Assembly (NCBI GenBank): GCA_937124965.1
Contig: CAKZLB010000013.1
Coordinates: 299,154-363,153, forward strand
Source: an uncultured Bacteroidota bacterium
GTDB taxonomy: Bacteria > Bacteroidota > Bacteroidia > NS11-12g > UBA9320
Length of the DNA stretch: 64,000 nt
Reading direction: 5' to 3'
Every line of letters starts with the position of its first letter. The stretch's first letter is position 1. Under the pieces are notes generated by a model, which searched no databases, had not been told where the DNA came from, and worked only from the letters and a program-made list of their open reading frames with translations. The position numbers and the translations under genes were made by a program. Below, piece by piece: positions 14,159 to 44,604 of this stretch.

Positions 14159-14189
14159 TTAATAAAGACTTGAGCTCAGCGCTATAAAA

Positions 14190-14980: not shown

Positions 14981-15026
14981 GAATCTGTAATACTTTTACA
15001 TCGAATTTTTATCTCAACAAAAAAGC

Positions 15027-20253: not shown

Positions 20254-20256
20254 AGT

Positions 20257-21516
20257 ATGCTGTATTATTTATTTAGATATTTAGAACAACATTTTGCAAT
20301 TCCAGGGGCTGGTGTGTTTGAATTTAGCTCGTTTAGAGCCATCCTGGCCATAATTGTCTCATTAATGATTAGCCTGCTTTTTGGCAAGAAGTTAATAGAC
20401 ATGCTCCGTAAAAAGCAAGTTGGTGAGTCAATTCGCGACCTGGGACTTGAAGGGCAAATCGAGAAAAAAGGAACACCAACAATGGGTGGTTTAATCATTA
20501 TTGCCGCCATTTTAATCCCCACATTATTATTCGCTAGACTCAGGAATATTTACGTCATCCTGATGATTGTAACCACCGTATGGCTTGGGTTAATTGGATT
20601 CTTGGATGATTACATTAAGGTTTTCAAAAAAGATAAAGCTGGCTTAGCTGGTAAATTCAAAGTTGTGGGTCAACTCGGCTTAGGGTTAATCATCGGTCTC
20701 ACACTTTACTTTAACAAAGAAGTTGTTGTTCGTGAAACTGTTTCACAAAGCGAAGCCACTTCTACTCAAATTGAAGCCTCACATGAAAGCTATCAAAATG
20801 AGCTTGGTGAAACGATGTATGTCATAGATAATAAATCAACTATAACCACGATTCCATTTATAAAAAGTCATGAGTTTGACTATGCAGACTTACTTTTCTT
20901 TTTAAGTAATGCAAATGCTAAAAAGTACTCGTGGATTATCTACGTGTTTGTTGTCACGTTTATCATCATTGCGGTAAGTAATGGAGCCAACCTTACCGAC
21001 GGCATCGACGGATTGGCTGCTGGAACGAGTGCTATAATCGGTCTCACGTTAGCTGTGCTAGCGTTCATTTCTGGTAATGCCATATTCGCCAAATACCTGA
21101 ACATCATGTTTATTCCTTTTCAAGGGGAACTTGTAATTTTTGGTGCGGCTTTCGTCGGGGCATGTATCGGCTTTTTATGGTACAACTCCTACCCTGCTCA
21201 AGTTTTTATGGGCGATACTGGAAGTTTAGCACTAGGAGGAATAATCGCAGTTTTTGCCATTATGCTTCGTAAGGAATTATTGATTCCAATTTTATGCGGA
21301 ATCTTTTTGGCTGAAAATCTATCGGTTGTCATTCAAGTCAGCTATTTCAAATACACAAAAAAACGATATGGCGAAGGTCGACGCATATTCAAAATGTCGC
21401 CTTTACATCACCACTATCAAAAGTTAGGATACGCAGAACCCAAAATCGTTACGAGGTTTTGGATTGTCGGAATCATGCTAGCAGCGCTCACCATAATAAC
21501 CTTTAAGCTACGATAA
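20257..21516 (+). CDS. mraY: Phospho-N-acetylmuramoyl-pentapeptide transferase MraY
   Basis: '[13 protein letters not shown]', '[12 protein letters not shown]', 'SPLHHH'. Confidence 0.95.
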
Positions 21517-21519
21517 CAA

Positions 21520-22860: not shown

Positions 22861-22863
22861 GTA

Positions 22864-24027: not shown

Positions 24028-25096
24028 AAGAACATTTTTAATTTCAGGTGGCGGTACTGGTGGCCATATTTTTCCAGCAATTGCAATTGGTAAAGCTTTA
24101 CAACTGAAATACCCTGAATCGACGATAGAATTTGTCGGAGCAAAAGACAAAATGGAGATGCAAAAAGTTCCAGAGGCTGGATTCAAGATTCATGGGCTTT
24201 GGATAAGTGGAATAGATCGAAAACTCTCTCTAAAGAACTTTAGTTTTCCATTCAAACTCCTTTCTAGTTTATGGAAATCGTATAAAATTATTAAAAAAAT
24301 AAAGCCTTCGGCGGTTATTGGTGTTGGTGGCTTCGCTAGTGGACCATTGTTGTACGTAGCAAATGTACTTGGCATACCAACTTTGGTTCAAGAACAAAAC
24401 AGCTACCCAGGTATTACTAATAAACTATTATCAAAAAAAGCTGACAAAATTTGTGTTGCATTCGACAACATGGAGCGTTTCTTTCCAAAAGAAAAAATTG
24501 TCATTACTGGAAACCCCATCCGCCAAGAATTACTAAACTCCAACAAAACAGTAGAACAAGCACGAGAACATTTTGGTTTAATAAATGAATCAACAGTCTT
24601 GATAATCGGTGGTAGTTTAGGTGCTAGAACTATTAACCAAGCAATAGCAAAAGACCTAAAATTATTTGAACAAAAAGGTATTCAGGTAATTTGGCAAACA
24701 GGGAAATCATATTCAGAGAAGCACTCGGTTTATGGTATACAAACTACCTTTATCAAGGAGATGGATTTGGCATATCAAGCCGCAGATCTGATTATTTCTA
24801 GAGCTGGAGCATCTAGTCTTTCAGAATTAAGTGCTCTGGGTAAAGCGAGTATTTTGGTTCCAAGTCCTAATGTGACTGAAGATCATCAGACTAAAAATGC
24901 AATGGCCATGGTTGAAAAAGACGCTGCTGAAATCATCCGAGATCATGAAGCTTTAGAGAAACTAGTATCTTTTGCATTACAGTTAATCGATGATAAAAAT
25001 CGGATAGAATTTTTACAGTCAAACGCTAAGCTCTTAGGCAAGACAAACGCAACGGAATTGATTGTTCAAGAAATTGAATGCCTAATAAGTCAATGA
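24017..25096 (+). CDS. murG: UDP-GlcNAc:lipid I GlcNAc transferase MurG
   Basis: 'GGTGGHIFPA', 'RAGASSLSEL'. Confidence 0.9.
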   Translation: MKNKRTFLISGGGTGGHIFPAIAIGKALQLKYPESTIEFVGAKDKMEMQKVPEAGFKIHGLWISGIDRKLSLKNFSFPFKLLSSLWKSYKIIKKIKPSAVIGVGGFASGPLLYVANVLGIPTLVQEQNSYPGITNKLLSKKADKICVAFDNMERFFPKEKIVITGNPIRQELLNSNKTVEQAREHFGLINESTVLIIGGSLGARTINQAIAKDLKLFEQKGIQVIWQTGKSYSEKHSVYGIQTTFIKEMDLAYQAADLIISRAGASSLSELSALGKASILVPSPNVTEDHQTKNAMAMVEKDAAEIIRDHEALEKLVSFALQLIDDKNRIEFLQSNAKLLGKTNATELIVQEIECLISQ

Positions 25097-26460
25097 ACAT
25101 AAAGCAGCTACATACCGTATTTTTTATTGGCATTGGTGGCATAGGTATGAGCGCTCTAGCCAGATATTTTAAGCATCAGGGGTTTAATGTTTTGGGTTAT
25201 GACAAAACACCAAATCCTGTAACAAAAGCATTACGTGACGAAGACATAGAAATTCATTTTAGCGATGACGTATCTTGGGCAAAAGAACAACTTACAGGTG
25301 TCTCTTTATCAGAAATTGTAGTTGTGTACACACCTGCTGTTCCCTTTAATTTAGGCATCAAAACTTATTTTGAATCTGAGAATGTACGCATCATTAAACG
25401 CGCTGAGGCACTAGGAATCGTTACTCAGCAGACAACAAATTTGTCCATTGCAGGAACACATGGAAAAACAACAACAAGCTGTCTTTTAGCACACATTCTA
25501 TCTGTATCTGAAATACCACAAGTTGCTTTCTTAGGAGGTATTTCATCAAATTTAAATAGCAATTATTACAACACGTTAAAAGAAAATACAACCTCAGTAA
25601 GTGTAACTGAAGCCGACGAGTTTGATCGTTCATTTCTTCATTTAACTCCAAAATATGCGGCCATAACCAATATGGATGCCGACCATTTGGATATATATGG
25701 TGACAAAGACTCACTCACAAAATCATTTATTGAATTTGGCGACAACGTAAATCCTGATGGAAAACTGTTTGTTCAAGCCGATTGTCAGAACGAATTTAAA
25801 CGACCAATAATCACCTACGGAATTGAGCAAGGGCATATTAGCGCAAGAAACGTTCACATTCATGAAGGTCAATTTATTTTCGATTTGTACCTAGACAGCG
25901 ATGTTTTCCGTCTTCTAAAACTGGGGATCCCAGGAAAACATAACATTGAAAATGCCGTAGCAGCATCGTGTATTGCATTGGAAATGGGTGTATCCGAAGA
26001 CCAACTGCGTAATGCACTCGAAACATTCAAAGGGGTTAAACGTCGGTTTGAATATGTTGTGAATACCAAAGAACATGTTTTTATTGATGATTATGCACAT
26101 CACCCTACAGAATTAAAGGCAATAATATCCGCGACCAAAGAACTATATCCATCAAAAAAAATAACAGGAATCTTTCAACCTCATTTGTTTACACGCACTC
26201 GCGACTTTATGGATGAGTTTGCAGAGAGCTTGTCACTATTGGATGAGATAATCTTATTGGACATTTATCCAGCAAGAGAACTACCGATAGAAGGAGTAGA
26301 CAGCCAAGTTTTACTTGAAAAAATTCGTACAAAAAAATCGTTAGAAACTAAAGAGCGGGCTATTAACAAAATTGCAAGTGAACTACCAGAAGTTCTCCTT
26401 ACGTTAGGAGCTGGAGATATTGACTCAATTATTCAACCATTGAAATCACTCTACGTATGA
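25078..26460 (+). CDS. murC: UDP-N-acetylmuramate--L-alanine ligase MurC
   Basis: 'FIGIGGIGMSALA', 'AGTHGKTTT', 'DHLDIYG'. Confidence 0.9.
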   Translation: MPNKSMNIKQLHTVFFIGIGGIGMSALARYFKHQGFNVLGYDKTPNPVTKALRDEDIEIHFSDDVSWAKEQLTGVSLSEIVVVYTPAVPFNLGIKTYFESENVRIIKRAEALGIVTQQTTNLSIAGTHGKTTTSCLLAHILSVSEIPQVAFLGGISSNLNSNYYNTLKENTTSVSVTEADEFDRSFLHLTPKYAAITNMDADHLDIYGDKDSLTKSFIEFGDNVNPDGKLFVQADCQNEFKRPIITYGIEQGHISARNVHIHEGQFIFDLYLDSDVFRLLKLGIPGKHNIENAVAASCIALEMGVSEDQLRNALETFKGVKRRFEYVVNTKEHVFIDDYAHHPTELKAIISATKELYPSKKITGIFQPHLFTRTRDFMDEFAESLSLLDEIILLDIYPARELPIEGVDSQVLLEKIRTKKSLETKERAINKIASELPEVLLTLGAGDIDSIIQPLKSLYV

Positions 26461-27182
26461 AGAAGTATCTGTTACGTTGGGTGTTTTTGGGAGTTGGTTT
26501 GTTGCTGACGATTACCTTGTTTTTTATTTTTAAGGTGAAGAAAACAAATACTGTTTGCACTGATTTTAACATTGAATACCACAGAAAACAAGAACCATTA
26601 ATTTCAAAAAGCCAAATTGCCGACTATTTACGCAAGGACTCTATCCAATTTATTGGCTTACAAGGCAAGGATATCGACTTGGCTAGTGTTGAAAAAAGTT
26701 TAAACAAAAACGATTTTATTCAAGAAGCCCATTGCTATTTAGCGATGAATGGAAATTTACAACTCGTCATTCATCAAAAAACTCCTATTTTACGAGTAAT
26801 TCCGCTTGGAAAACCAGGATATTATTTAGATAAAAATGGCAAGAAATTCCCGCTATCACTGCTATACACACCCGATGTAAAAGTGGCCACTGGGTTTATC
26901 AACACGAGCTTGCACAAAAAACTGTACACATTCACAAGCTATGTTAATCAGTCAGACTTCTGGAAACCCTTTATAGAACAGATATTTGTCAGACCCAATG
27001 GAGATATAATCTTCACCACGCAAATGGGAGGGCACGAAGTAGTTGTTGGAGACAATAATCGTTTAGAACAAAAACTTGATAAGCTAATGCGATTTTATCA
27101 AAAGGCTTCATCAAATCTCGGATGGGAAACCTATAGAGAAATAAATATTAAGTATAGAGATCAAGTAATTTGCAAGAAGTAG
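26457..27182 (+). CDS. ftsQ: Cell division protein FtsQ
   Basis: Single N-terminal TM then POTRA-like region. Position between murC and ftsA. Confidence 0.7.
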   Translation: MKKYLLRWVFLGVGLLLTITLFFIFKVKKTNTVCTDFNIEYHRKQEPLISKSQIADYLRKDSIQFIGLQGKDIDLASVEKSLNKNDFIQEAHCYLAMNGNLQLVIHQKTPILRVIPLGKPGYYLDKNGKKFPLSLLYTPDVKVATGFINTSLHKKLYTFTSYVNQSDFWKPFIEQIFVRPNGDIIFTTQMGGHEVVVGDNNRLEQKLDKLMRFYQKASSNLGWETYREINIKYRDQVICKK

Positions 27183-27183
27183 C

Positions 27184-28515
27184 ATGACCGAAAACAAAAT
27201 CATCGTAGGACTAGACATAGGAACCACAAAAATCTGCACCATTGTGGGTAGGATGGGTGAATATGGAAAAGTTGACATCCTAGGTTTAGGACAAGTCCCA
27301 ACGAATGGTGGAGTAACACGTGGTGTTGTTTCAAATATTGACAAGACGGTAAATGCGATTATTGCTTCTACAGAAGACGCTGCGAAAAAATCGAATGTAG
27401 ATATAAATCGAGTTCATGTTGGAATTGCGGGCGCTCACATCAACAGCTTGCAACATAGAGGCATGATTATTCGTAATGATGCCGAACTTGAAATTTCACA
27501 AGACGATTTAGATAAGTTAGAGAAAGACATGCATAAATTGTCAGTAAACCCTGGCGATAAAATTATACATGTTCTTCCACAAGACTTTACTGTAGACAAC
27601 GAACCCGGTATTGTAGACCCAATAGGAATGGCTGGTGTCAAACTTGAAGGAAACTACCATATAATCACTGGGCAGATAACAGCCGCAAAAAATATATACA
27701 AGTGCGTTGAAAAATCAGGTCTAAAAGTTTCTGAACTAACGTTAGAGCCTTTAGCATCTGCACACTCGGTATTAAGTGAAGAAGAGTTAGAAGCAGGTGT
27801 TGCTTTAGTTGACATCGGAGGCGGAACAACAGACGTTGCCATCTTCCATGAAAACATAATACGACACACCGCAATTATACCTTACGGTGGTAACATCATC
27901 ACGGAAGACATCAAAGAAGGATGTAACGTAATGAAGCACCAAGCTGAATTGCTAAAAACTCGATTTGGATCAGCATTGGCAGACGAATCAACCGAAAACG
28001 AAATAGTTTCAATTCCAGGGTTACGAGGAAGAGAGCCTAAAGAAATATCCGTTAAGAACTTATCCATGATTATAAGTGCACGGGTTTCTGAGATATTAGA
28101 ACTTGTGTATTACGAAATCAAATCAAGCGGTTTAGAAAAGAAACTGGTTGGAGGAATTGTAATTACCGGTGGAGGAGCTATGTTAAAAAACATAACTCAA
28201 TTAGCAGAATACATCACTTGTTTGGATGCACGAATCGGTTATCCTAACGAGCATCTAGCCAAAGGAATGGTAGATGAGGTAAAAAGTCCAATTTATGCTA
28301 CAGCAGTTGGCTTAGTGTTAAAAGGGTTACGTGAAGATTCCGAGGCAAATAACGAATTTAGACGAGAAGAAAAAAAAGAGGTTGAAATTGAAGCAGATGT
28401 AGCTGAAATGACCGAAGAAGATAAAGATCGAAGTATAAAAGCAGAAAGGCGTGATCATTTTTTCACAAAATTCAAAGCTTGGTTAAAGGACGAAAGTGAC
28501 ATTAAAGATTTTTAG
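27184..28515 (+). CDS. ftsA: Cell division protein FtsA
   Basis: Actin-fold 'VGLDIGTTKI', 'DIGGGTTD', 'ITGGGA'. C-terminal amphipathic membrane-targeting helix 'FFTKFKAWLKD'. Confidence 0.9.
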   Translation: MTENKIIVGLDIGTTKICTIVGRMGEYGKVDILGLGQVPTNGGVTRGVVSNIDKTVNAIIASTEDAAKKSNVDINRVHVGIAGAHINSLQHRGMIIRNDAELEISQDDLDKLEKDMHKLSVNPGDKIIHVLPQDFTVDNEPGIVDPIGMAGVKLEGNYHIITGQITAAKNIYKCVEKSGLKVSELTLEPLASAHSVLSEEELEAGVALVDIGGGTTDVAIFHENIIRHTAIIPYGGNIITEDIKEGCNVMKHQAELLKTRFGSALADESTENEIVSIPGLRGREPKEISVKNLSMIISARVSEILELVYYEIKSSGLEKKLVGGIVITGGGAMLKNITQLAEYITCLDARIGYPNEHLAKGMVDEVKSPIYATAVGLVLKGLREDSEANNEFRREEKKEVEIEADVAEMTEEDKDRSIKAERRDHFFTKFKAWLKDESDIKDF

Positions 28516-28524
28516 AAGAGCGGA

Positions 28525-29904
28525 ATGAACTTTAAAGTAGACTTACCTAAGGATAAATCTTCGATTATTAAAGTAATTGGAGTTGGAGGCGGAGGCGGAA
28601 ACGCCGTGAACTACATGTACGAGCAGGGTATTTCTGGCGTTGATTTCTTTATCTTTAATACTGACAATCAAGCGCTCGAAATGAGTGTTGTTCCAAATAA
28701 AATACAAATTGGAAACGAACTTACAGAAGGTCGCGGAGCGGGGTCAAACCCAGAAGTTGGAAAACACGCGGCTGAAGAAAGTTTAGAAGATATCATTGAC
28801 TCACTTGGTGTAAACACTCAAATGGTGTTTGTCACGGCAGGTATGGGTGGAGGAACCGGAACTGGAGCTGCTCCTGTTATTGCGAAAGCTGCAAAAGACA
28901 TGGGTATTCTAACCGTTGGTATTGTTACTACTCCATTTACTTTCGAAGGGAGTAAACGAGTAACAGCGGCGGAAACCGGACTTAATGAAATGCGGGAAGT
29001 AGTTGATTCATTATTGGTAATATCCAACGACCGAATCAAAGACATGTACGGCAACCTGAAAATTACTGAAGCATTTAGTCACGCAGACAATATTTTAACA
29101 ACAGCTGCAAAAGGAATTGCAGAAATAATAACCATTGCAGGTAGTATAAATGTCGACTTTGAAGACGTTAAAACTGCTATGACCAACAGTGGTGTTGCAA
29201 TTCTTGGTAATGGAGTTGCGGAAGGTGAAGATAGAGCGACGCGTGCGGCAGAACTAGCTTTAACCTCGCCTTTGCTAAATGATAACAAGATTGTTGGAGC
29301 AAGCGACTTATTGATTAACATTTCCTATGGCGATGAAGAAGCCCGAATGGATGAATATGCAGCAATCAACGAGTTCTTCCAAGATCAAGCTGGGATGGAC
29401 GCAAACCTTAAATGTGGGTTGTGTTATGACGATACCTTAGGATCGAAAATATCTGTAACCATAATAGCAACAGGTTTTAACAAAGCAGAAAATAGATACT
29501 TAGGTGTTTCTGAAATCGAAGAAGAAGAGAATCATATATTGGAATCTATTTCGATTGATCCAGAGGCAATAGAGGAAGAAGAAGTATCCAATAAAAAGCA
29601 AACTTCAATCTTCGACTACATTGAAGATAATGAGGAAGAAGAAGAAATCCGCAGTGCAAATGCGCGGGTAGAAGAAATGAAAGAACGAATTCTTCGACTG
29701 AAAGAGTTAAGTAAAACAGCAAACTCTCAAGAAGGAATGGAGGAACTTGAGAACGTTCCGGCATACAAAAGACGTGGGGTTAAACTAGCAAACACCACAC
29801 ACTCATCTGAATCAGATATCTCGCGAACTTCGCTTGTTGATGAACCAGATAATAAACCCGAAATAAAGACAAATAACAGTTTCTTACATGACAATGTAGA
29901 CTGA
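28525..29904 (+). CDS. ftsZ: Cell division GTPase FtsZ with long acidic C-terminal linker and tail
   Basis: '[11 protein letters not shown]', tubulin signature '[11 protein letters not shown]', T7 loop 'NVDFEDV'. The FtsA-binding peptide 'NVPAYKRRG' lies ~45 aa before the C-terminus. Confidence 0.95.
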
Positions 29905-34548: not shown

Positions 34549-37500
34549 TTATTCACTCTTAAAAACGTAGCCTTTTTTAACTTTTTTACCAATCATTTTC
34601 TCTTTTTCTTCCAATGCCTTTTCATTCGTAGCAAACGGTTTTTCAGAGACCTGAGGTTTGTTTCCAATGCGTCCATAACGCACAATCACTGAAGATTCAG
34701 CAACTCCGATTTCCCAATATTTGTTACTCGTTCCTTCAACAAACTCATACCGTTCGAATGGAATATCGCCAGTTACCTCGTTCGACGGTTTACTCTCCAC
34801 TTCATCCAACGATGGTTCCGTTATTACTTCTTCTGTTTCTTCAACTTTTTCATCTTCAACAACGTAGATTTTTGTTTCCGCTTCATGAACTTCTTCATCA
34901 ACATCTTCGCCTGCCTCAAACAAATCATCGACATTGACAGCTTTCTCAAACACCGTTTTATTTTCGAGGATTTTCTTAAGTTTTTCAAGAACACGTTCCT
35001 TTTGTTCAAACCAATCTTTGTAAAGCACACGTGTTATCTTCCAACCAAAAGATTTTAAGATTTCTGGTCGCTGGCAATATTGTTCCAACACGTCATCGTT
35101 TGAATAATGATGTGCATGATCAATCAAAATCCCCAACTGGTATCGATCTTCACCATCTACCTTAATCGCTAAATCACACTTAAAATGGGATTGTCCTACT
35201 CCTACATCAGCGGCGTAACCCATTTTATCAAGCTCTTTTTTCAACTGCTGAACAATCAACTTGTTGTCTAAACTTTCAAGTTCTTCGGTCTGACTCATTG
35301 AGTCAAGAATCACATTTGCTTCTCCAATTCGCCCTTCAGATATTAGTCGAGCGTAACTTAAAAAGCGCTTGAAGTAGTTTGCTCCTTCGTTATAGTCGTT
35401 TTTGATATCTTGTGGTTGGATACTCGAAACAACTACCATGTTTCGTTTCGCTCTTGAGAAAATTACATTCAATCGTTTCTCTCCTCCCCTCCTATTTATT
35501 GGTCCAAAATTCATGTACATTTTTCCTGAATGATTGTAACCATAACAAACGCTCATGATAATGATATCACGCTCATCACCCTGCACATTTTCTAAATTCT
35601 TTACAAAAAGACCATTAAACTGGTCTTCATCCATTCGCTGGTATTCTTGTTCCAATCGTGCTTCAAAATCACGATCATCTGTACACAAACGTTGTAAAGC
35701 AGCCTCAATTTCAGACTGTTGTTCCATAGAAAATGCGACCACACCAATGCTTCTTCCATCCTTATGATTCAGCAGCTGCTGAACCATCTTTGCGATGTAA
35801 TTTGCTTCATCAACGTTTTTACGCTTTTCATAGGTTGCATTTTCCAAGTAATGATAGCTAATGCTTTTTGACAACATCTTATCAATATCAATGTCTTCAG
35901 AAATGTCCGTGACTGGAAGGGATTCTTCACTTTGCGATTGATGCATGACATTATCAGGAATCGTTAAAAGTCCTCGTTTGTAAAACGCAGCATTGCTAAA
36001 ACTAATTAAGCTTTCATGCCTGCTTCTATAATGCCAACCCAGCATCACCGACGATAGTTTTCGTCCACCTTGGTTCAGCAAGCTATCTGCATCAAGGCTT
36101 ATCCCGATATGTTCTTCGGTTTCACTTTCATCTTCATCGACGGTATTGCTTGAGCTAAAGAAATTCGTCGGCGGCATTTGCATTTCATCTCCAACAATGA
36201 TGGTTTGTTTGGTTCTAAAAAGCGATGGAACACCTTCTTCCACAGTAATCTGACTCGCTTCATCATAAATTACCACATCAAATAAATCAACGTCAATTGG
36301 CATGGTGTCACTCACACTGAGTGGACTCATCAGCCAAACCGGTTTTAAAGCAGTTAGCAATGAATTTGTTTCTTCACCCGCCAATTCACGAATCGACTTA
36401 TAGCGCATCGATTTACCGAATTCATTTTCTAATATTCGTCGAGCCGCAAGCCATAACTTCTTCTGTACTTTTTCCTCTTGCGTTAATTGAGCGGCGACAG
36501 ATTCGGTAACGCGAATCATGTCGGAAAACTCATCTCGAATTTTCGCCCGAATGTGTTCAACGTTACTCTCGTAATATTTGTCAAGCAATGCATTTATTCT
36601 TCGAATACTTATTTCCAAACTGTCGTCTTCGACCCTTGCAAAATTTGCTTGAGTTTCATAAATATCTTTGAGCGATTTATAAGCAAAATTGAATTCAAAG
36701 TCAGCCAAGTCCCAAGGCATTTGATACAAACAATGCTTTAGCTCTGGACTTACATTTTTTGCTTTTTCGATAAATGGCATCATTGCCGATAACGAACTAA
36801 CAACTGGTTTACTTTTTTGCAATTTCTCGTCTAAATTTTCAACTTTTAAATTTCGCACATCACCATAAAGCTGTTCGACATTTTCATATAGCTCTTGAAA
36901 CATGGCAGCTTGGCCATTCAACGCATTGATCTCTTCTAATGCATTCTCTCTAACCCAATGACCAAGTGTTTTTGTTGGATGCAATTGCATCTCTTCAATC
37001 CATTTCGTCTCATCATCCCAGGCCTCCAATCCGAAACTTGACATCGTTTGAGTTCTAAGTCGCTCAATCTGATCTTTACAAGTGTACTCATCATTCAGGT
37101 TTGTGAGCAGTTTTTCAAAATCTGGTTTAATCTTGTGCGCTTCAAGATTGTACGATTCTGCAATTTGTCCTTTTAGTTTATAAAAGGCGGGATTTACAAA
37201 ACGTAAAATGGAGCTATTCAGTTTCTTCCATTGAATAAGGGCTTGCTCAGCGTCGTCTTTGCCCCACTTCTGTTTCCAGTTACTGTTCGATTTTTCGAGA
37301 CTGGCTTTTTCTTGCAACAAAGACTGTATTGATTTTTTAGCTTCGTATAAATCAGCCGCCTCATTCGAACCTCTTGAAAACACTTGGAGTTTTCCCTTAT
37401 TGACTATCGTTCCTAAGCGCTCTGCTAATTGAAACCTTTCCTTCCAAAGACTCAATTTCATCTTTTCAGGATCATCAATATCGAAATCATCTAACTGTTC

Positions 37501-40029
37501 TAGCCAATTATCTAATATCGTTACAGACTTTTCAATTTTGTCTAAAACGACTTGTTTTGGATTTGACGATTCAATGATTGAAGTTTCGAGCTGAGCAAAT
37601 GGGTACTGCGAAATTGCTTTTTCTAATCCTGCAGTTTTCAATTGTTCAATCCAGTCAGTTATCCACTCTCGCTCCGATTTCCATTCCGAATATAAAGCAA
37701 ATTGAACGATAGCCGTTTCAGACGGATAGACACGATGTGCATTGAATCTATGCAATACTTCGAATAGCTCAATTGGCGGCACTTCGCCAGATTTCATTTG
37801 TTTATGAAAAAATGCCAATTTCTCTGTTTCCGCTTCGATTGCATCTACTACAAACTTCCTGTTTCTTTCTATTTCATTTAGGTCTAGTGTATTCGAAATG
37901 AAGCTTTCATACGTTTCTTTGAGGTTCAGGATGAATGATTTTTTATCCGCCTGAGAATCGTGTATCAAACAGCACAATTCGTCTAGTTTCCGATTTTTCA
38001 ATCTATGGAATACAACGTCCAATGCAGCACGTTTTTCACAAACAAACAAAATCTTTTTGCCTCGTGAAATGTAGTCTGCAATTAGATTTGTAATTGTCTG
38101 TGACTTACCTGTACCAGGAGGTCCCTGAATGATATAACTTTGTCCAGTTCTCGCTAACTCTATTGCTTTTGTTTGGGTTGGATCCGCAGAAATAATTGGA
38201 AAATTTGTCGCTAAATCTGAGTTGCTTTCTGTATCGTTTAGAACACGCTGTGGCAACTCACTAAATAGTTGGTCGAATATTTCATCAGACGTTTTAGAAT
38301 CAATTATCTCATTGTAATCACGCACCAAGCTCATCTTACGATAGTTAAAATTACCAATTGTGATGTTGCATGTATCTACTTCCCAAACCAATGGATTTAC
38401 GTCGCCTTCATTGTCTGTGGTATAAAACGTTCTAGCCTTTTCTTGAACCGCATTATTTGTTGGACTTAAACTGTCATTGATAATGTATTCTAGCGCACTG
38501 TTTTTGTAGCGAATTCGCTCTTTAAAAATTTGTAACCCTAACGGAATGAAATCGTCGTTTGAATAGGAATAATGGAAATTACGTACGTTTAGCGCAGCTG
38601 CTTTTTTGGTTAATTTGTGTGTTCGTAGATTAAAGTTCTTTTTAGCTATGGTATGTATTAGTTTAATCTTTGGCTTTTGACGCCATTCTATAGAAATTCC
38701 AGAACCATCTGATGCAATTTGTTGCTGAATAGTATTCACCAAATCCTCAACATCACTTGTTTCCAAGTCAATAAAACTTGGCAAATCGATATCATACAAA
38801 TCCTTGAGATAATTACTTAAAATCGGATTTATCTCAGCTTCCGTGCTATCAAATCCAATAATAAATTGATCTCGAACTCCTTTTTTCTTTGTTACTGTAG
38901 CTGGCAGTAATAAAAGCGGTGACGTAATTTTCTCTGTATTATCTTCCTTAAAATTATACCAATGTAGGAACGCAACAACCACCCGCAATTGACTAAAACC
39001 ATACTCATTCTGACTTCGTCGAGCATCCAACCGAATTTTGTTTAAGGTTGGAGCGATGATTTTATTTTGCCCGATTTCGACGAAGTTATTGACGATGATC
39101 TTTTTGGACTTAATCACCTTTTTTCGGATATTATCGTTCCAAAATATCAAGTCTTTTTCACGAATATTTTCGTGATCTAACAATAGCGGAACGGATGATA
39201 TCGTGAGGTTTAAGAAGTTTTGTTGTTCTCTAAAATATAACAACTTATTCCGTCTACTAATATCAAATAGCCGATTCTTAAGCTTTGCTAGTATCCATTG
39301 ATTACGCGTTGATGTTTCTTGATTTCGAAATCCTTCTGTTTCTGTTAAATCAACATAATTTTCAGGATTATACTCCCGATAGTTGTTCAGTTTGGTAATT
39401 GCCTCTTCCAAATTCGACAAACGATCTTCTCGGTATACCTGCGTCATTTCATAAATGACATTGTGTGCCGTTGGGTGAAGCGATTGATTAAGAAAAAACA
39501 GCCGTTTCCGATTTTCAACAAAAGCCTCCAAGTCATCTTTCTCTCGAAAATCTAATTGATACGCCACACTTGCGAGTATCATCCCGAGGTTAAAAATATC
39601 CGTGATTGGATCGTAATGACCCAAGGCGTACTCCCATGATTTGTAATTTGGAAGGTATGACGCTTGAGACGGCGAAGTATTCTCATCCATGTGAATGAGA
39701 TTGGTTGAGTACTCAGAGCTTTGAGTATCGACATCCAGTTTCTCTGTATACCCTTGATCAACCTCTATACTTGACTTTTGATTCGGCTTTACAAATAATG
39801 GACGCGTTGCATACTGAATAGTTTTAGCAGGACCTGAAACACTCAACCGATTATCGATGTATTCAATTTGTTGAATGTGGGTAATCATTGCAACCTGATT
39901 ATTCTCGTGTAGGTATTTAACCTTTTCAAGAAGCGGAAGCGTATAGGCGATAAAATCAGGTGTTTTAAGCTGACCGAAATCCTTAATTCTATCGATAAGG
40001 TGAAATATGTTTTGTGAGGTATTTTCCAT
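34549..40029 (-). CDS. Giant (1826 aa) multidomain protein: N-terminal kinase-like C-lobe signature region, DUF4011, Upf1-like SF1 helicase core, Vsr/DUF559-like endonuclease fold, acidic linker, C-terminal WGR domain
   Basis: DUF4011-like 'NKLLYFR…YGFSQLRVVVAFLHWYN…SPLLLLPATV'. Walker A 'IIQGPPGTGKSQT' (aa 633-645). Motif II 'DEASQ' (1256-60). Motif III 'VGDEMQMPP'. Motif IV 'GWHYRSRHESL'. Motif V 'VQGDERDIIIMS'. Motif VI 'EKRLNVIFSRAKRNMVVV'. Endonuclease-like 'FKCDLAIKVDGEDRYQLGILIDHAHHYS'. WGR 'YWEIGVAESSVIVRYGRIGNKPQVSEKPF…A…KVKKGY' (aa ~1755-1826; nt 34552-34767). Confidence 0.85.
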   Translation of the reverse strand: MENTSQNIFHLIDRIKDFGQLKTPDFIAYTLPLLEKVKYLHENNQVAMITHIQQIEYIDNRLSVSGPAKTIQYATRPLFVKPNQKSSIEVDQGYTEKLDVDTQSSEYSTNLIHMDENTSPSQASYLPNYKSWEYALGHYDPITDIFNLGMILASVAYQLDFREKDDLEAFVENRKRLFFLNQSLHPTAHNVIYEMTQVYREDRLSNLEEAITKLNNYREYNPENYVDLTETEGFRNQETSTRNQWILAKLKNRLFDISRRNKLLYFREQQNFLNLTISSVPLLLDHENIREKDLIFWNDNIRKKVIKSKKIIVNNFVEIGQNKIIAPTLNKIRLDARRSQNEYGFSQLRVVVAFLHWYNFKEDNTEKITSPLLLLPATVTKKKGVRDQFIIGFDSTEAEINPILSNYLKDLYDIDLPSFIDLETSDVEDLVNTIQQQIASDGSGISIEWRQKPKIKLIHTIAKKNFNLRTHKLTKKAAALNVRNFHYSYSNDDFIPLGLQIFKERIRYKNSALEYIINDSLSPTNNAVQEKARTFYTTDNEGDVNPLVWEVDTCNITIGNFNYRKMSLVRDYNEIIDSKTSDEIFDQLFSELPQRVLNDTESNSDLATNFPIISADPTQTKAIELARTGQSYIIQGPPGTGKSQTITNLIADYISRGKKILFVCEKRAALDVVFHRLKNRKLDELCCLIHDSQADKKSFILNLKETYESFISNTLDLNEIERNRKFVVDAIEAETEKLAFFHKQMKSGEVPPIELFEVLHRFNAHRVYPSETAIVQFALYSEWKSEREWITDWIEQLKTAGLEKAISQYPFAQLETSIIESSNPKQVVLDKIEKSVTILDNWLEQLDDFDIDDPEKMKLSLWKERFQLAERLGTIVNKGKLQVFSRGSNEAADLYEAKKSIQSLLQEKASLEKSNSNWKQKWGKDDAEQALIQWKKLNSSILRFVNPAFYKLKGQIAESYNLEAHKIKPDFEKLLTNLNDEYTCKDQIERLRTQTMSSFGLEAWDDETKWIEEMQLHPTKTLGHWVRENALEEINALNGQAAMFQELYENVEQLYGDVRNLKVENLDEKLQKSKPVVSSLSAMMPFIEKAKNVSPELKHCLYQMPWDLADFEFNFAYKSLKDIYETQANFARVEDDSLEISIRRINALLDKYYESNVEHIRAKIRDEFSDMIRVTESVAAQLTQEEKVQKKLWLAARRILENEFGKSMRYKSIRELAGEETNSLLTALKPVWLMSPLSVSDTMPIDVDLFDVVIYDEASQITVEEGVPSLFRTKQTIIVGDEMQMPPTNFFSSSNTVDEDESETEEHIGISLDADSLLNQGGRKLSSVMLGWHYRSRHESLISFSNAAFYKRGLLTIPDNVMHQSQSEESLPVTDISEDIDIDKMLSKSISYHYLENATYEKRKNVDEANYIAKMVQQLLNHKDGRSIGVVAFSMEQQSEIEAALQRLCTDDRDFEARLEQEYQRMDEDQFNGLFVKNLENVQGDERDIIIMSVCYGYNHSGKMYMNFGPINRRGGEKRLNVIFSRAKRNMVVVSSIQPQDIKNDYNEGANYFKRFLSYARLISEGRIGEANVILDSMSQTEELESLDNKLIVQQLKKELDKMGYAADVGVGQSHFKCDLAIKVDGEDRYQLGILIDHAHHYSNDDVLEQYCQRPEILKSFGWKITRVLYKDWFEQKERVLEKLKKILENKTVFEKAVNVDDLFEAGEDVDEEVHEAETKIYVVEDEKVEETEEVITEPSLDEVESKPSNEVTGDIPFERYEFVEGTSNKYWEIGVAESSVIVRYGRIGNKPQVSEKPFATNEKALEEKEKMIGKKVKKGYVFKSE

Positions 40030-40035
40030 GGTCGA

Positions 40036-41283
40036 TTAATCTTGGAATATGCTGTCTTCTCGTGATTCGTTTTGCTTTTGCAAGTCTGCCATTGCACTAT
40101 CCAGAAGCGCTTTAAAGTCGCGAACGGTTAGTTTCATTTCTTTTCTGATAATTTTTTCATAGATATCCTTAATGCCAATCACCTCCGCTAATTCGGAAGT
40201 ATACGCAAGCGGCATGTTCTCAAGCTCTCTATCAACCTTCGAAAAGTCTAACAGTACGTAACAGAGATAGGACTTGACCGACTCCTTAGAAGACTCAATA
40301 TTTTTGGCAAAGTCTTCAATTTTGACATCGTCTTTTGTTCGTACAAAATCCTGAAAATACTGATCACACAGATTCAACACCGTAGACGTTGCCATCCATT
40401 TTGGCTTGACGATTAATTGGAGGAGGTTTTTCGTTACCTCTTGCATTTCAGTTTGCTTAAAGATGTCAAGCTTGTCAATGTCTAAAGAGCCTTCAATCAA
40501 TTTTTGAACGTGTTCGAAATAATCCTTATCGTTTTCCGATTGCATGAGAAGTGCAATACTTCTGATATATGACTCAGGGTGCGTGTCGTTGACTGTTCCT
40601 TCATCAACATTCGATAGTATTTCCTTTGCTTGGTTTAAATAGCTTTCCGCGTTGACTTCTGACAACCCTGTATCAAGTTTTACCAACATTTGTATTACCG
40701 TTTTATGGTCTTTTGAAACGAGTAAAGATCCAGCATCACAAAAGAGTTCCATGTATAGCTGATAAATTCGAGCAGTTTGGATAATGGCATTTTCACTACG
40801 ATTATCGTTTGCCAATGAAACTACTAATCGATTCGTAATTTCAAACTCTTCGTTGTCTGTTTTGTAAAATAAATAATGACTAAGCTCGTGCGCTAATAGG
40901 CATTTCATTTCCTCATCGTTCAATAGGTTTAAAACAGACCCTGAGAACACAATATGTGCTTCCTTATCAAGAATTGAAATTCCGGCGTTTAACTGTGTAC
41001 TATTATTCTCTTGATAGAGAATTACGTTTGCATCTATCGCCAGCACCTTGCAGCATTCATCAGCCAAGAGGTATAGTTTTTCATGACTTGATCTGTCGAG
41101 TCGGTAGGTATTTTTTAAAAGCGTTTTTTTGTATTCATCTATCTGTTGCTCCTTCGTCGCTTTAAGTGCAAACCAATCCCACGTTTTCTTTTGCTGTTTA
41201 AAATGATCTCGCAATTTTATGTGATACTGAAACGGAGTGAGGTTTAAACTGGGTGAACTCGACTCTGTGGTTTGATTTTCCAT
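40036..41283 (-). CDS. Soluble HExxH zinc-metallopeptidase-like protein (M48-like core) with uncharacterised alpha-helical C-terminal half
   Basis: 'NVILYQENNSTQLNAGISILDKEAHIVFSGSVLNLLNDEEMKCLLAHELSHYLFY' parallels the M48/HtpX 'NAFa.G…i.l..gLl..l...El.aVlaHElgH' block. Downstream Glu in 'ELFCD'. No TM segments. Stop is 6 nt before the helicase ATG. The track starts at TTG 41289; ATG 41283 is preferred. Confidence 0.6.
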   Translation of the reverse strand: MENQTTESSSPSLNLTPFQYHIKLRDHFKQQKKTWDWFALKATKEQQIDEYKKTLLKNTYRLDRSSHEKLYLLADECCKVLAIDANVILYQENNSTQLNAGISILDKEAHIVFSGSVLNLLNDEEMKCLLAHELSHYLFYKTDNEEFEITNRLVVSLANDNRSENAIIQTARIYQLYMELFCDAGSLLVSKDHKTVIQMLVKLDTGLSEVNAESYLNQAKEILSNVDEGTVNDTHPESYIRSIALLMQSENDKDYFEHVQKLIEGSLDIDKLDIFKQTEMQEVTKNLLQLIVKPKWMATSTVLNLCDQYFQDFVRTKDDVKIEDFAKNIESSKESVKSYLCYVLLDFSKVDRELENMPLAYTSELAEVIGIKDIYEKIIRKEMKLTVRDFKALLDSAMADLQKQNESREDSIFQD

Positions 41284-41558
41284 AGACAAAATTAAGGTGC
41301 TAAATTATGGAAAAGTGCGAAGACTGTCAGATATTTAGCGAAGAATGTGGATGTGATTTCACGTTCTAAGCTTAAAAATTAATCACCTTTTCTAAACGGG
41401 CACAACCATGTTATTTAGAAAGAATAATTAATGTGAGTCAGGCTTTATTTATTACCCTCTTTCATTCATAACAAATCACCTGTTTGTGCCCAGGGAAAGG
41501 ACAATGCGTCAAGTTGGAGTTTTTTTTCTAGAAAACATAGTTCTTAAATTAGCTTAAT

Positions 41559-42551
41559 GTGAATGTAAAAAATAATATTTGTGGCTTAATAATAACAAAT
41601 ATGAACCAATCAAAAATCTTACTTACTTTCTCCTTTTTAATACTTGTCTCAATTTGGAGTTGTAAAGATGACACAGTTTTACCGACAAAATCTGCCAATG
41701 AATTAATAGTCGTAACTGGCATGGATCCTATAATTAACGAAAACCCAAGCAATAAGCAATTGCTGACAACAATCACTGGTACCTCTGCGTTAGGTGATGT
41801 TGTTATGAGTTTAGAAATGGAGTCTGTTACAGGAAGTCTGGACTTTAATCCTGAAAATGGTGAAGTGCGAGTAAAAAATAGAAGTCTTTTTGATTTTGAA
41901 AAAAATCAGTTTATCACCTTTAAAATCAAGGGAACAGTTGGTGAAGAATGGAATGAAGGAACATTTAAGATTACCTTAAAAGATGTAGAAGAATTGCCTT
42001 CTGTGCAAAACTTGCTAGATGAGGGTAAACATCCTTGGGAAATAATGAAAAGTAACTCTAAGTATACTATTGATTCACTGATTAATAAACGCTATGGAGG
42101 TGGGTACATTTTTCGTGTGGATGATTTTGATTTTGAAACTTGGATTGTTGCTAAAGAAGATATAGGATCTGCACCATGGGGTTGCAAGGGCACTCTAATT
42201 AGTTATACAAGTGATGCAATACATAAGAGTGCAGAAAACACGAAAACCATTCTTGCTGAATGCAATGAACCGAGTATTGCCGCTAGAAAATCTGATGCAT
42301 ATTCTATCGATGGTTATGACGACTGGTATTTGCCTTCTGAAGGTGAGATGAGAACTGTATTTTTTATATTGAAGAAAGAAACATTAGACAAAATGGAAAT
42401 TGCAATAGGTAGCAAGTATTGGACTTCAACACAAGAAAACAAAGACGATGCAATTTACATTGGTTACATATCAGAGGGACGAGGGACGTCATACACGGGA
42501 AGCAAAGACATCCTTTATAAAGTTCGACCTTGTAGAAAAGTTACGCAGTAG
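41559..42551 (+). CDS. DUF1566 (Lcl C-terminal domain)-containing lipoprotein
   Basis: Signal peptide plus lipobox 'SIWSCKDD'. C-terminal 'DGYDDWYLPSEGEMRTVF…KYWTST' matches the DUF1566 'DWRLPT..EL..L' signature. Confidence 0.5.
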   Translation: MNVKNNICGLIITNMNQSKILLTFSFLILVSIWSCKDDTVLPTKSANELIVVTGMDPIINENPSNKQLLTTITGTSALGDVVMSLEMESVTGSLDFNPENGEVRVKNRSLFDFEKNQFITFKIKGTVGEEWNEGTFKITLKDVEELPSVQNLLDEGKHPWEIMKSNSKYTIDSLINKRYGGGYIFRVDDFDFETWIVAKEDIGSAPWGCKGTLISYTSDAIHKSAENTKTILAECNEPSIAARKSDAYSIDGYDDWYLPSEGEMRTVFFILKKETLDKMEIAIGSKYWTSTQENKDDAIYIGYISEGRGTSYTGSKDILYKVRPCRKVTQ

Positions 42552-43565: not shown

Positions 43566-43823
43566 TCAGTCGTAATGAAATCTACACTTCGCAATTAATA
43601 TTTCGTCCTCATTGTATTGGTAGATTAATCTGTGTTCGCTATCTATTCGTCTTGACCAAAACCCAGCATATTTATGCTTTAAAGGCTCAGGTTTTCCAAT
43701 TCCATCAAATGGGTTTCGACCAATCTCTTTCAGAAGATCATTTATTTTTTTAAGCTTTTTTTTATCCGTTTTTTGCCAATACAAATAATCTTCCCAGGAC
43801 TCGTCAACGAATATATACTTCAT
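43566..43823 (-). CDS. yoeB: YoeB/Txe-family toxin (RelE fold)
   Basis: 'SWEDYLYWQ…D.K…KIN.LLKEI.R.PF.G.GKPEPLK…G.WSRRID.EHRLIY' colinear with YoeB. Confidence 0.85.
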   Translation of the reverse strand: MKYIFVDESWEDYLYWQKTDKKKLKKINDLLKEIGRNPFDGIGKPEPLKHKYAGFWSRRIDSEHRLIYQYNEDEILIAKCRFHYD

Positions 43824-43830
43824 CTTAACT

Positions 43831-44079
43831 TTAAATTAAGTCTTTGTCAAAAGACTCACCGCTTTTAAGTTTGTCAATAGCGGAATCTAATCTTAATTCA
43901 TTTTTTCGAGAAGATAATTCGTGATTTGTAGCCATCAATGAATTGTATTCTTGCAATGACATAACTACAATTCCAGAATCTTTTCCGCGATTTATTATCA
44001 ACGTTTCAACGTTTTTTACAACTAGGTCTAAGTAAGCTTTAATATCTTTCCTAAAAGCAGAAACAGTAGTTATTTGCAT
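43831..44079 (-). CDS. yefM: YefM/Phd-family antitoxin
   Basis: 'MQITTVSAFRKDIKAYLDLV…ETLIINRGKDSGIVVMSLQEYNSLM' Phd/YefM fold. Immediately upstream of yoeB. Start taken at the internal ATG (44079), not the track's 44115. Confidence 0.8.
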   Translation of the reverse strand: MQITTVSAFRKDIKAYLDLVVKNVETLIINRGKDSGIVVMSLQEYNSLMATNHELSSRKNELRLDSAIDKLKSGESFDKDLI

Positions 44080-44447
44080 AATTTTGTATTTTATTAAGTA
44101 CAAATATAAGTACAAAATTTAGATTACTTGATTTCTTCTGTGTAGCTGACAACGACTCAATAGCGTCCTAAACTTTTTTTTAGTAATGCTAGTGACGCCA
44201 GTTAATTCAGGTGAGTAGGATTTTTGAAGGACTTTGGGGTTTAATGTTCATAATACATTTGGTTTGGAGGTCGATGGCATTTTTGGAGATGGAGTGTCAG
44301 TGAAGTTTTTTTTGGTAAAATCCAAGGGAAGTCGAGAACTTGTTCGAGAATCACTCGCAGGATTCCAATAAAAACAAACGGAAACGAACAACGCCAAAGG
44401 AGCCTTGAACTTTTTGTTTACTTTTTGGTTCAAGACAAAAAGTAAAA

Positions 44448-44514
44448 CCTGCTTGCCAACAAGCAGGTCGGTTTGGCCTGCCTGCAGCAGGCAGGCTGAT
44501 AAGCCTGCCTGGCG
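44448..44514. repeat. GC-rich twin palindromes plus repeat-family motif (copy A) in an AT-rich divergent intergenic region
   Basis: CCTGCTTG-CCAA-CAAGCAGG (44448-44467). GCCTGCCTGC-A-GCAGGCAGGC (44476-44496). AAGCCTGCCTGGCG (44501-44514), which recurs at 50148-50161. Confidence 0.5.
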
Positions 44515-44604
44515 GAAGACACGGCCAAGTAGAACTATTTATTAAAATATTTACGACAGGATTGCTACCAAACAATTAGAATCTCACAACTACGTTAAGA
44601 ACGT

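Follow-up and report, generated by a model that had tools for sequence, protein, structure and literature searches.

A predicted cytoplasmic M48-family metallopeptidase encoded together with a Hhe/ProA-like helicase-nuclease

The closest described relatives of the helicase-nuclease analysed here are the anti-phage proteins Hhe, ProA and PDC-S37, a single-gene group with which it has in common a DUF4011 domain, an Upf1-like SF1 helicase core and a Vsr-like MTES_1575 nuclease. Hhe, reportedly described by Gao et al. in 2020, is represented by the NCBIfam model NF042953, named 'DUF4011 domain-containing anti-phage protein Hhe', and the S prefix of PDC-S37 presumably marks single-gene candidates in PADLOC. 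A literature search for the origin of the name ProA found no paper. M48 peptidases typically work in the membrane or periplasm on unfolded substrates, with Ste24, HtpX, Oma1 and BepA being membrane or periplasmic quality-control enzymes. A cytoplasmic switch role for such an enzyme is without precedent, and no characterised M48 enzyme is known to be tied in this way to the gene of a helicase-nuclease. The family pattern is H-E-x-x-H-x(30,140)-H-P-x(4)-R, in which HPx4R is defined as an active-site plug, and its members as a rule act as proteases in the quality control of stalled substrates (PMC7950410). Hachiman HamAB offers a likeness of working only: its helicase reportedly monitors whether DNA is intact and governs a partner enzyme, which is set free or switched on upon an encounter with aberrant DNA (PMC10925250). 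The partner in Hachiman is a nuclease, whereas the locus described here has its nuclease as part of the helicase protein and a protease as the separate partner, and the partners of the two systems have no homology.

The window, a stretch of 64,000 nucleotides from an uncultured Bacteroidota bacterium, carries on its minus strand a metallopeptidase gene followed immediately by a gene for a giant helicase-nuclease (Table 1). A plus-strand reading of the peptidase open reading frame (ORF), which spans 40036-41289, was rejected, as stop codons occur throughout. A TTG start at 41289 yields 417 residues, and an ATG two codons downstream yields a product with 100% identity to a database protein (P0001); ATG numbering is used below. 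An earlier note on this DNA had numbered the HExxH residues H134/E135/H138, which is correct in TTG numbering (HELSH at residues 134-138). The peptidase ORF is not a chance ORF, because its family comprises, at 50% clustering, 1760 representatives with E<=1e-3 and 370 with E<=1e-30. In the product, neither a transmembrane segment, the absence of which the same note had stated, nor a signal peptide was found; the maximum 19-residue Kyte-Doolittle mean is 1.25 and the N-terminus is hydrophilic. Since it has neither membrane anchor nor signal peptide, the peptidase is predicted to be soluble and hence cytoplasmic. The AF2 model, which is confident (pLDDT 89.7, pTM 0.86), consists of a three-stranded sheet followed by an almost entirely helical remainder. 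The peptidase shows no informative domain fusion, and one 'fusion' to an alanine racemase is an apparent gene-calling artefact.

Table 1. Positions of the two genes and their domains and motifs in the window (peptidase residues in ATG numbering).
Feature	Window position	Strand	Details
Peptidase gene	40036..41283	(-)	415 aa from ATG; predicted soluble, divergent M48-family zinc metallopeptidase
Conserved N-terminal helical extension, residues 15-58	41110..41241	(-)	Alignments; helices 19-58 in model
M48 catalytic domain, residues 53-248	40540..41127	(-)	
HELSH zinc-binding/catalytic motif (H132, E133, H136)	40876..40890	(-)	Alignment
ELFCD, with E179 as predicted third zinc ligand (M48 'ExxAD' helix)	40735..40749	(-)	Alignment
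HPESYIR, the HPx4R 'active-site plug' (H235, P236, R241)	40561..40581	(-)	Alignment
Family-specific all-helical C-terminal domain, residues 250-415 (~165 aa)	40039..40536	(-)	
Partner gene, multidomain helicase-nuclease, 1826 aa	34549..40029	(-)	ATG 6 nt after peptidase stop codon
Helicase N-terminal domain, residues 1-215, protein-kinase C-lobe-like fold	39385..40029	(-)	
DUF4011, residues 253-408	38806..39273	(-)	Pfam 1.1e-14
Upf1-like SF1 helicase core, AAA_11 (616-763) and AAA_12 (1324-1536)	35422..38184	(-)	Pfam
MTES_1575 (Vsr-like) restriction-endonuclease-fold domain, residues 1594-1686	34972..35250	(-)	Pfam 2.3e-16
C-terminal WGR, residues 1764-1822, after acidic linker	34564..34740	(-)	Pfam 2.6e-13; PDB 2ra8

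The assignment of the peptidase as M48-like, proposed in the earlier note, was upheld by profile searches. Pfam Peptidase_M48 (PF01435) matches at 23.3 bits against a gathering cut-off of 20.3, covering only profile positions 32-77, and hhalign of the peptidase family profile against bona fide full M48 returns 96.5% probability over 182 columns (residues 53-248), with the HExxH, ExxxD and HPx4R motifs aligned. Profile matches in the PDB are minigluzincins and HtpX; an M48/minigluzincin fold is present, and the fold is closest to M48. Among full-length relatives, down to 26% identity, 116/117 close and 133/140 distant ones retain the published M48 pattern, and this retention argues for a working enzyme. 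Among Pfam matches at E<=1 there is none to DUF45/WLM (YgjP-like) or to the M78 profile PF06114, the best matches being to peptidase families, and the predicted zinc ligands are intact. PADLOC and NCBIfam profiles returned no defence-partner model for the peptidase and only weak matches to HtpX and SprT. With high confidence, the ORF can be assigned to the M48 peptidases, as a very divergent zinc metallopeptidase that is predicted from its sequence to be cytoplasmic and catalytically intact. Unlike Ste24/ZMPSTE24, HtpX, Oma1, BepA, LoiP and YcaL, it lacks both a membrane anchor and a signal peptide, its similarity to the family is marginal outside the motifs, and it possesses an N-terminal extension of its own and a C-terminal domain that is not recognisably TPR.

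In an alignment of 98 homologous sequences, E133 and H136 of the HELSH motif are invariant and H132 is at least 90% conserved, and E179 and D183 of the ELFCD motif are likewise invariant. ELFCD aligns with SELSAD of bona fide M48 and is replaced by TELFAD in the Ralstonia homologue; the equivalent of E179 in BepA is E201, the role of which has been described (PMC7950410). H235, P236 and R241 of the putative plug are also invariant, and the H235-R241 segment sits 98 residues past H136. Immediately before it lies loop 228-234, the sole internal segment of the model with low confidence, and its low pLDDT suggests that the loop is mobile. The N-terminal extension of ~45 aa has no match in Pfam and contains the conserved motifs TWxWF and LLKNTYRL, with W35, W37, F38, L56, K57 and N58 invariant, and no significant structural relatives of the C-terminal domain were found. 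An uncharacterised alpha-helical tail of ~230 aa had been claimed; the tail is indeed helical but is shorter than that, because the M48 core extends to approximately residue 248 and includes E179 and H235-R241.

The partner helicase begins with a domain of kinase-like fold in which no canonical kinase motifs (HRD, DFG in register, G-loop) were found and which is apparently inactive. Its helicase core is divided by a long insertion that separates AAA_11 from AAA_12, with Walker A (GPPGTGKS) at residue 636 and Walker B (DEASQ) at residue 1256, and the PDB sequence matches of the core are IGHMBP2, Sen1 and Upf1. A conserved cleavage motif in the disordered linker at residues 220-239 was considered and rejected, as the conservation of the linker (0.56) falls in the average range (0.49-0.64). 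PDC-S37 of PADLOC, for which no curated cut-off is given, matches the helicase with E 3.6e-202, aligning residues 549-1731 to profile positions 218-1371 of 1550. The NCBIfam ProA model (NF058533) aligns residues 548-1739 to profile positions 576-1739 of 1903 at 677 bits (7e-203), well below its cut-off of 1500, and scores 707 bits with the Ralstonia orthologue; Hhe scores 446 bits (3e-133) against a cut-off of 2000, with its best stretch at residues 1196-1728. By these profile comparisons, the helicase is a relative of Hhe, ProA and PDC-S37 and not a member of those families. The matches omit approximately the first 550 residues of the helicase, and its clade alone has the M48 partner, the WGR domain and the kinase-like N-domain. 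This clade is defined by its N-terminal region, which is kinase-like and apparently inactive, and in most cases carries a WGR domain at its C-terminal end.

The peptidase gene had been called the first gene of an operon with a helicase partner, and both parts of this claim were confirmed, the pair being present in every informative locus. The peptidase gene followed by the helicase gene on the same strand was found in 52/52 such loci, ranging from Bacteroidota to Ralstonia, Burkholderia and Luteimonas and down to 26% identity, and in all 43 genome loci with downstream sequence the helicase gene shares the strand of the peptidase gene. The apparent spacing in most of these 43 loci, taken from the ends of tblastn matches, is -2 to ~70 nt, with an extreme of 468 nt, and 4-nt gene overlaps occur in Ralstonia, Burkholderia, Luteimonas and Massilia. 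In the reverse direction, helicase-first look-ups placed an M48 gene upstream in 5/5 cases, two WGR-less variants included; WGR is dispensable for pairing, since these variants retain the peptidase. Among 72,556 plasmid records searched, the peptidase and the N-terminal 550 aa of the helicase occur in the same 14 records, whereas none of 461 further plasmid records with only Hhe- or DUF3320-type helicases contains a peptidase homologue. The peptidase was never absent beside a helicase of this clade in the material examined, and the identities of peptidase and helicase to the window pair are correlated (r=0.95). No third conserved gene, HTH protein, repressor or regulator accompanies the pair, the top neighbour cluster being present in seven loci and reflecting within-genus synteny. 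The peptidase always directly precedes one particular helicase-nuclease, and the two therefore very probably form an uncharacterised two-gene unit that works together; they are probably co-transcribed and translationally coupled. That the peptidase is an obligate partner of a single DUF4011/Upf1-like helicase/Vsr-like nuclease clade is held with great confidence. The earlier view that helicases of this class have no known partner of this kind fits the lack of a PADLOC match to the peptidase, the S prefix of PDC-S37, the single-gene annotation of Hhe, and literature searches on M48 with helicase, WGR with helicase, DUF4011, PDC-S37 and ProA, which found no paper on the pair.

The flanks of the pair vary between loci, with some loci adjoining a type I R-M system and HipBA, others a reverse transcriptase, a SWIM protein and a Macro protein, and most, including that of the window, lying among housekeeping genes. 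A PADLOC scan of 144 neighbouring ORFs returned convincing defence matches only sporadically, and no peptidase homologues were found in phage records. The variable flanks, the defence-type neighbours of some loci and the matches of the helicase to PDC-S37, ProA and Hhe point towards a defence role, while the housekeeping setting of the window pair, the sporadic nature of the defence matches and the lack of phage homologues point away from it. No structured RNA was found around the operon by Rfam matching, and scans for sigma-70 promoters and terminators did not rise above shuffled expectation and are of little value in a Bacteroidota-like genome.

We lean towards a reading of the pair as a two-gene Hhe/ProA-like variant in which the M48 peptidase would act as a docked proteolytic switch. 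The peptidase would use its non-catalytic helical parts to dock onto the N-terminal region of the helicase that is specific to this clade, and its HPx4R plug would hold it silent, as modelled for BepA (PMC7950410). Engagement of aberrant or foreign DNA by the helicase, recognising ends or nicks through WGR and DUF4011 and translocating with ATP, would displace the plug, and the peptidase would then cut an exposed segment of the helicase-nuclease to activate it or limit its lifetime. That the helicase is the substrate is a tentative and rather doubtful part of this scheme. The chances that the module defends against mobile DNA appear evenly balanced, and this role is proposed by analogy only, because the helicase scores far below the curated Hhe and ProA cut-offs. 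Another formulation, in which an immune or genome-integrity machine would couple a kinase-like/DUF4011/helicase/nuclease/WGR DNA sensor to a cytoplasmic M48 enzyme for site-specific proteolysis of the sensor or of DNA-bound foreign proteins, is conceivable but on the improbable side.

An alternative that we consider unlikely, though the best of the remaining explanations, is a function in genome maintenance, in which the helicase would translocate, WGR would read breaks, the peptidase would clear proteins that block DNA or are covalently trapped on it and the Vsr-like nuclease would process the lesion, in the manner of SprT/Wss1/SPRTN, zinc proteases for DNA-protein crosslinks that work with DNA-handling machinery. 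The best Pfam match of the peptidase is in fact SprT-like, just above the cut-off (27.3 against 25.6 bits), but it covers only the neighbourhood of HExxH (residues 92-146). SprT-type enzymes carry a third histidine ligand closely after the motif (HExxHx5H), whereas HELSHYLFYKTD has no histidine within 12 residues after H136; the predicted third ligand of the peptidase is instead a glutamate ~43 residues downstream, its HPx4R plug is an M48 feature, and its fold and motifs are those of M48. SPRTN (6mdw) appears in the Foldseek list with a non-significant E of 2.6. Genomic context favours maintenance in several respects: the window pair lies in a housekeeping setting (dcw cluster, pth and rbfA, with a YefM/YoeB pair nearby) and its GC content equals that of the flanks, giving no compositional signal of recent transfer; among the neighbouring genes are, in Ralstonia, a giant uvrA and, in Burkholderia, DNA polymerase II; and the pair occupies conserved chromosomal positions within Nonlabens and within Burkholderia. 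The bacterial WGR proteins MolR and DR2173 have been reported to be DNA-damage-induced (PMC8533742), and the general role of M48 enzymes in the quality control of stalled substrates would also fit. Against maintenance, however, no convincing LexA box (CTGT-N8-ACAG) was found upstream of four proteobacterial operons, the distribution is patchy, with the pair in only 14/102 Ralstonia plasmid records that contain any helicase relative, and the helicase has its named relatives among anti-phage proteins.

It is quite improbable that the partner of the helicase is non-proteolytic, that is, an assembly chaperone or antitoxin-like inhibitor that holds the helicase-nuclease inactive and in which the metal site is purely structural. 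The two genes are tightly coupled and the smaller one comes first, an arrangement seen in many defence pairs of toxin-antitoxin-like type; this would be consistent with such a role, as would the ~210 of 415 peptidase residues that belong to non-catalytic helical regions conserved across the family and the annotation of some relatives as 'Zn-dependent protease with chaperone function'. However, HExxH with its catalytic glutamate, the zinc glutamate and HPx4R are all kept in the 116/117 close and 133/140 distant relatives, which would be unexpected for a purely structural role.

A derepression protease of the ImmA/IrrE/CapP type, which would cleave a repressor upon a damage or infection signal and so induce the helicase gene, is very unlikely. 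The M78 regulators, among them CapP of CBASS, resemble the window peptidase in being small HExxH metallopeptidases whose genes accompany an immune or stress module and whose presumed task is to convert a signal into proteolysis; however, no HTH or repressor gene is conserved beside the pair, the peptidase has an M48-like fold and no M78 match, and what it accompanies is a region of the helicase protein, not a promoter-proximal regulator. Chance adjacency of an ordinary M48 protease with a housekeeping role and a helicase gene unrelated to it, to which the generic annotation of homologues as 'M48 family metalloprotease' and nothing beyond would point, is refuted by the 52/52 loci across phyla, the 4-nt overlaps, the correlated identities and the exact co-occurrence on plasmids.

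A large and conserved cytoplasmic M48 branch locked to a helicase-nuclease would extend the known roles of the family, and the DNA-sensor formulation given above, if true, would represent the first M48 signalling role outside membranes and the first protease-gated Hhe-like helicase-nuclease. The pair sets a widespread two-gene clade, which numbers hundreds of clusters at 50% identity, apart from the single-gene Hhe/ProA/PDC-S37 group, and because PADLOC has no model for the peptidase, current detection tools would call this clade single-gene or overlook it. The module also unites a pseudokinase-like domain, an Upf1-like helicase and a PARP-type WGR domain, in which echoes of eukaryotic innate immunity or DNA-damage responses may be seen. 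In one locus (L048), genes for Macro, ARH and Tpt1 proteins adjoin the pair; an ADP-ribose theme was rejected, as such neighbours occur in no other locus. Carriers of the pair that are open to culture and manipulation include Ralstonia solanacearum (for example CFBP 8695, GRD98_20280/20285), Burkholderia, Cupriavidus and Nonlabens, and the two-gene clade is distributed across Bacteroidota, Burkholderiales, Xanthomonadales and other groups.

The peptidase gene and that of the 1826-aa helicase-nuclease downstream of it were found together at all 52 informative loci across all searches, as the earlier note had anticipated in proposing a helicase partner. When one genome per species was scanned, a peptidase homologue turned up at 47 loci; four of these end inside or at the gene, and all of the remaining 43 have a full-length helicase homologue directly downstream on the same strand. 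The gaps between the genes are apparent values, measured from the end of one tblastn match to that of the next; most fall between -2 and ~70 nt, and a few are wider, reaching 468 nt at most. In the window, the helicase ORF starts 6 nt past the peptidase stop codon. The divergence of the two proteins from the window pair is correlated (r=0.95), and no third conserved gene was found near the pair at the genome loci. Starting from the helicase, a ~400-aa M48 gene was found directly upstream in all three look-ups of homologues with 39-56% identity and in both of two WGR-less variants (5/5), which answers the concern that the peptidase might often be missing beside this helicase. On a Ralstonia solanacearum megaplasmid, a 26%-identical peptidase overlaps by 4 nt with an 1833-aa 'WGR domain-containing protein', and the 4-nt overlap recurs in three of three further look-ups in its proteobacterial clade, which contains Burkholderia, Cupriavidus, Massilia, Luteimonas and others. 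The peptidase is very likely an obligate genetic partner of one helicase-nuclease clade. Chance adjacency of the two genes is refuted.

Within a collection of 72,556 plasmid records, the peptidase matches 14 Ralstonia records and one unrelated ordinary M48, and the N-terminal 550 aa of the helicase match exactly those 14 peptidase-bearing records. The helicase-nuclease part matches 475 records; in the other 461, among them DUF3320 proteins and Klebsiella plasmids with the annotation 'anti-phage protein Hhe', there is no peptidase homologue. This co-occurrence (14 vs 461) ties the peptidase to the clade whose N-terminal region is kinase-like/DUF4011, rather than to DUF4011 helicases at large; genetic coupling demonstrably follows the N-terminal region of the helicase.

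Positions of the two genes, their domains and nearby features (window coordinates, or residues where stated)
Feature	Position	Strand	Detail
Peptidase ORF	40036-41289	minus	TTG start at 41289; 417 aa
Peptidase ORF, alternative start	ATG at 41283	minus	415 aa; 100% identity to a database protein
HELSH	40876-40890	minus	residues 132-136 (ATG numbering), 134-138 (TTG numbering)
N-terminal helical extension	peptidase residues 15-58		conserved
C-terminal helical domain	peptidase residues 250-415		~165 aa
Partner ORF	34549-40029	minus	1826 aa
DUF4011	partner residues 253-408
AAA_11 half, split Upf1-like SF1 helicase	partner residues 616-763		Walker A GPPGTGKS
AAA_12 half, split Upf1-like SF1 helicase	partner residues 1324-1536
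MTES_1575 (Vsr-like) endonuclease domain	partner residues 1594-1686
WGR domain	partner residues 1764-1822		preceded by acidic linker
dcw cluster	18793-29904	plus	complete
Divergent neighbour	41559-42551	plus	330 aa
YefM/YoeB	43566-44115	minus	type II toxin-antitoxin
Palindrome cluster	44440-44525		intergenic

The SF1 helicase of the partner has the Walker B motif DEASQ, and matches to models of anti-phage proteins all fall within the helicase-nuclease part: PADLOC PDC-S37 (3.6e-202) and NCBIfam ProA (677 bits, cut-off 1500) match from about residue 550, and the best stretch for NCBIfam Hhe (446 bits, cut-off 2000) begins at about residue 1190. The S prefix of PDC-S37 is the one that PADLOC gives to single-gene candidates. 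The partner lies below both curated thresholds (Hhe and ProA) and matches PDC-S37 only partially; by these profiles it is a relative of the three families, not a member. Two clade helicases of 1680-1709 aa, at loci fetched from other genomes (L057:1580-6622 and L058:3725-8854), lack the C-terminal WGR and retain the M48 partner, and WGR is therefore an optional module of the clade, dispensable for pairing. The pair is classified as a Hhe/ProA-like helicase-nuclease to which this clade has added an acquired kinase-like N-terminal domain, usually a WGR, and an obligate M48 peptidase subunit. None of the PADLOC and NCBIfam defence models recognises the peptidase, and no description of the pair was found in the literature library searched, where just six papers refer to DUF4011.

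The peptidase is encoded on the minus strand, the plus-strand reading of 40036-41289 having been rejected for a frame full of stops; the HExxH that the earlier note placed at 134-138 is HELSH in TTG numbering (ATG numbering is used below). Two Pfam matches exceed their cut-offs, SprT-like (27.3 vs 25.6) and Peptidase_M48 (23.3 vs 20.3), both confined to the HExxH surroundings; the Pfam M78 and DUF45 profiles did not match, NCBIfam gave weak HtpX matches and PADLOC gave none. A word-indexed search returned 414 relatives of ~400-420 aa, and an HMMER search run exhaustively from a 98-sequence profile yielded, after clustering at 50%, 1760 representatives, of which 370 reach E<=1e-30; almost all of them match from end to end. 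The family is large and uniform. Residues H132, E133, H136, E179, D183, H235, P236 and R241 are among those that are invariant or nearly so. The paper on the BepA structure defines M48 enzymes by an HExxH, a Glu on the following helix that binds zinc, and an 'active-site plug' HPx4R, and condenses these into the pattern H-E-x-x-H-x(30,140)-H-P-x(4)-R (PMC7950410). The peptidase fits this pattern (HELSH ... ELFCD ... HPESYIR), which is kept in 116 of 117 close and 133 of 140 distant full-length relatives, and when the profile was compared with that of a bona fide M48 (Pfam match of 1.5e-28 across the whole profile), all three motifs aligned over residues 53-248 (96.5% probability). The SprT-like alternative fails, the third-ligand histidine being missing. 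Since the three motifs and the profile comparison fit, and SprT, M78 and DUF45 fail, the peptidase is very likely a divergent, soluble M48 with an intact catalytic set; each testable criterion of sequence and fold supports membership, and enzyme activity is predicted. The M48-like core of the earlier note thus stands, also against the DUF45 and ImmA-type (M78) profiles.

Averaged over 19 residues, hydrophobicity peaks at a Kyte-Doolittle mean of 1.25, too low for a membrane span, in agreement with the reported lack of a TM segment, and the N-terminus is polar, so the peptidase is predicted to be cytoplasmic. The helical tail described earlier is real, and its ~230 aa shrink to ~165 because part of the M48 core was counted in; this C-terminal domain belongs to no Pfam family, and a search for structural relatives found none. 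The conserved helical extension at the N-terminus is the other non-catalytic part of the peptidase.

The pairing is striking, widespread and easily tested; function and mechanism we infer as follows. The chances that the module is a defence system are about even. In a mechanism that we consider less likely than not, the peptidase would dock on the N-terminal region of the helicase via its own family-specific helical parts, and the HPx4R plug would keep it silent, in line with the proposal drawn from BepA for M48 enzymes; directly before H235 lies the one internal loop to which the peptidase model gives low confidence. On meeting aberrant DNA, the helicase would release the peptidase, which would then cut the helicase-nuclease and so activate or limit it. 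It is rather unlikely that the module serves genome maintenance, with the protease removing proteins bound to DNA; an unusually long uvrA (~1945 aa) after the pair in Ralstonia solanacearum (L051:16886-21122) and a DNA polymerase II gene (polB) close to it in Burkholderia (L053:16258-17197) possibly hint at a DNA-repair link, or are coincidence. That the peptidase is a non-proteolytic inhibitor or chaperone is improbable, given its conserved catalytic residues, and an ImmA-like derepression protease, here without a repressor partner, is highly improbable.

The flanks of the pair vary between genera, some being defence-like, some repair-like and many neutral. On the Luteimonas sp. WGS1318 chromosome (L055:1-5954 and 15375-17062), the surroundings are defence-island-like, with type I R-M genes (HsdM, HsdS, an inserted Fic and HsdR) on one side and a HipB/HipA toxin-antitoxin on the other. 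On JGI metagenome contig Ga0604650_0000040 (L048:933-4748 and 11574-17369), the pair sits inside a conflict-type island, with methyltransferase, Macro, ADP-ribosylglycohydrolase, PP2C phosphatase and Tpt1 (RNA 2'-phosphotransferase) genes upstream and, downstream, a reverse transcriptase and a SWIM protein that is probably the source of the PADLOC SWIM_XIII match (2.6e-147); its ADP-ribose genes are absent from all other fetched loci. Across 144 neighbouring ORFs, strong PADLOC matches are only sporadic (SWIM_XIII, RT-Protease_XI, IetA, PDC-S01 and WYL) amid matches to generic ATPases. Presence is patchy, with the pair in 14 of 102 Ralstonia plasmid records that have some helicase relative. 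This distribution and the varied flanks fit an accessory, transferable cassette, which does not in itself prove a defence role.

In the window, the pair shares the GC content of its flanks, which hold housekeeping genes (dcw cluster, pth, FtsX-like permease, rbfA) and YefM/YoeB. The dcw cell-division/cell-wall cluster (murE, mraY, murD, ftsW, murG, murC, ftsQ, ftsA, ftsZ) lies ~4.6 kb from the module and shows that the setting is the chromosomal core genome of an organism that is low in GC and Bacteroidota-like. YefM/YoeB (Phd/YefM antitoxin, 4e-16; YoeB toxin, 5.5e-39), 2.3 kb from the peptidase gene, is the sole defence-like element near the module. In the divergent neighbour, which is not conserved beside the pair in other genomes, the N-terminus combines a hydrophobic stretch with a Cys after it, which may be a lipoprotein signal, and the C-terminal domain resembles Lcl_C at a score below threshold (27.1 bits, cut-off 34.9). 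GC-rich palindromes/hairpins such as cctgcttgccaacaagcagg and gcctgcctgcagcaggcaggc cluster in an AT-rich spacer; they match no Rfam family at gathering score and could represent a stack of terminators or a REP-like element.
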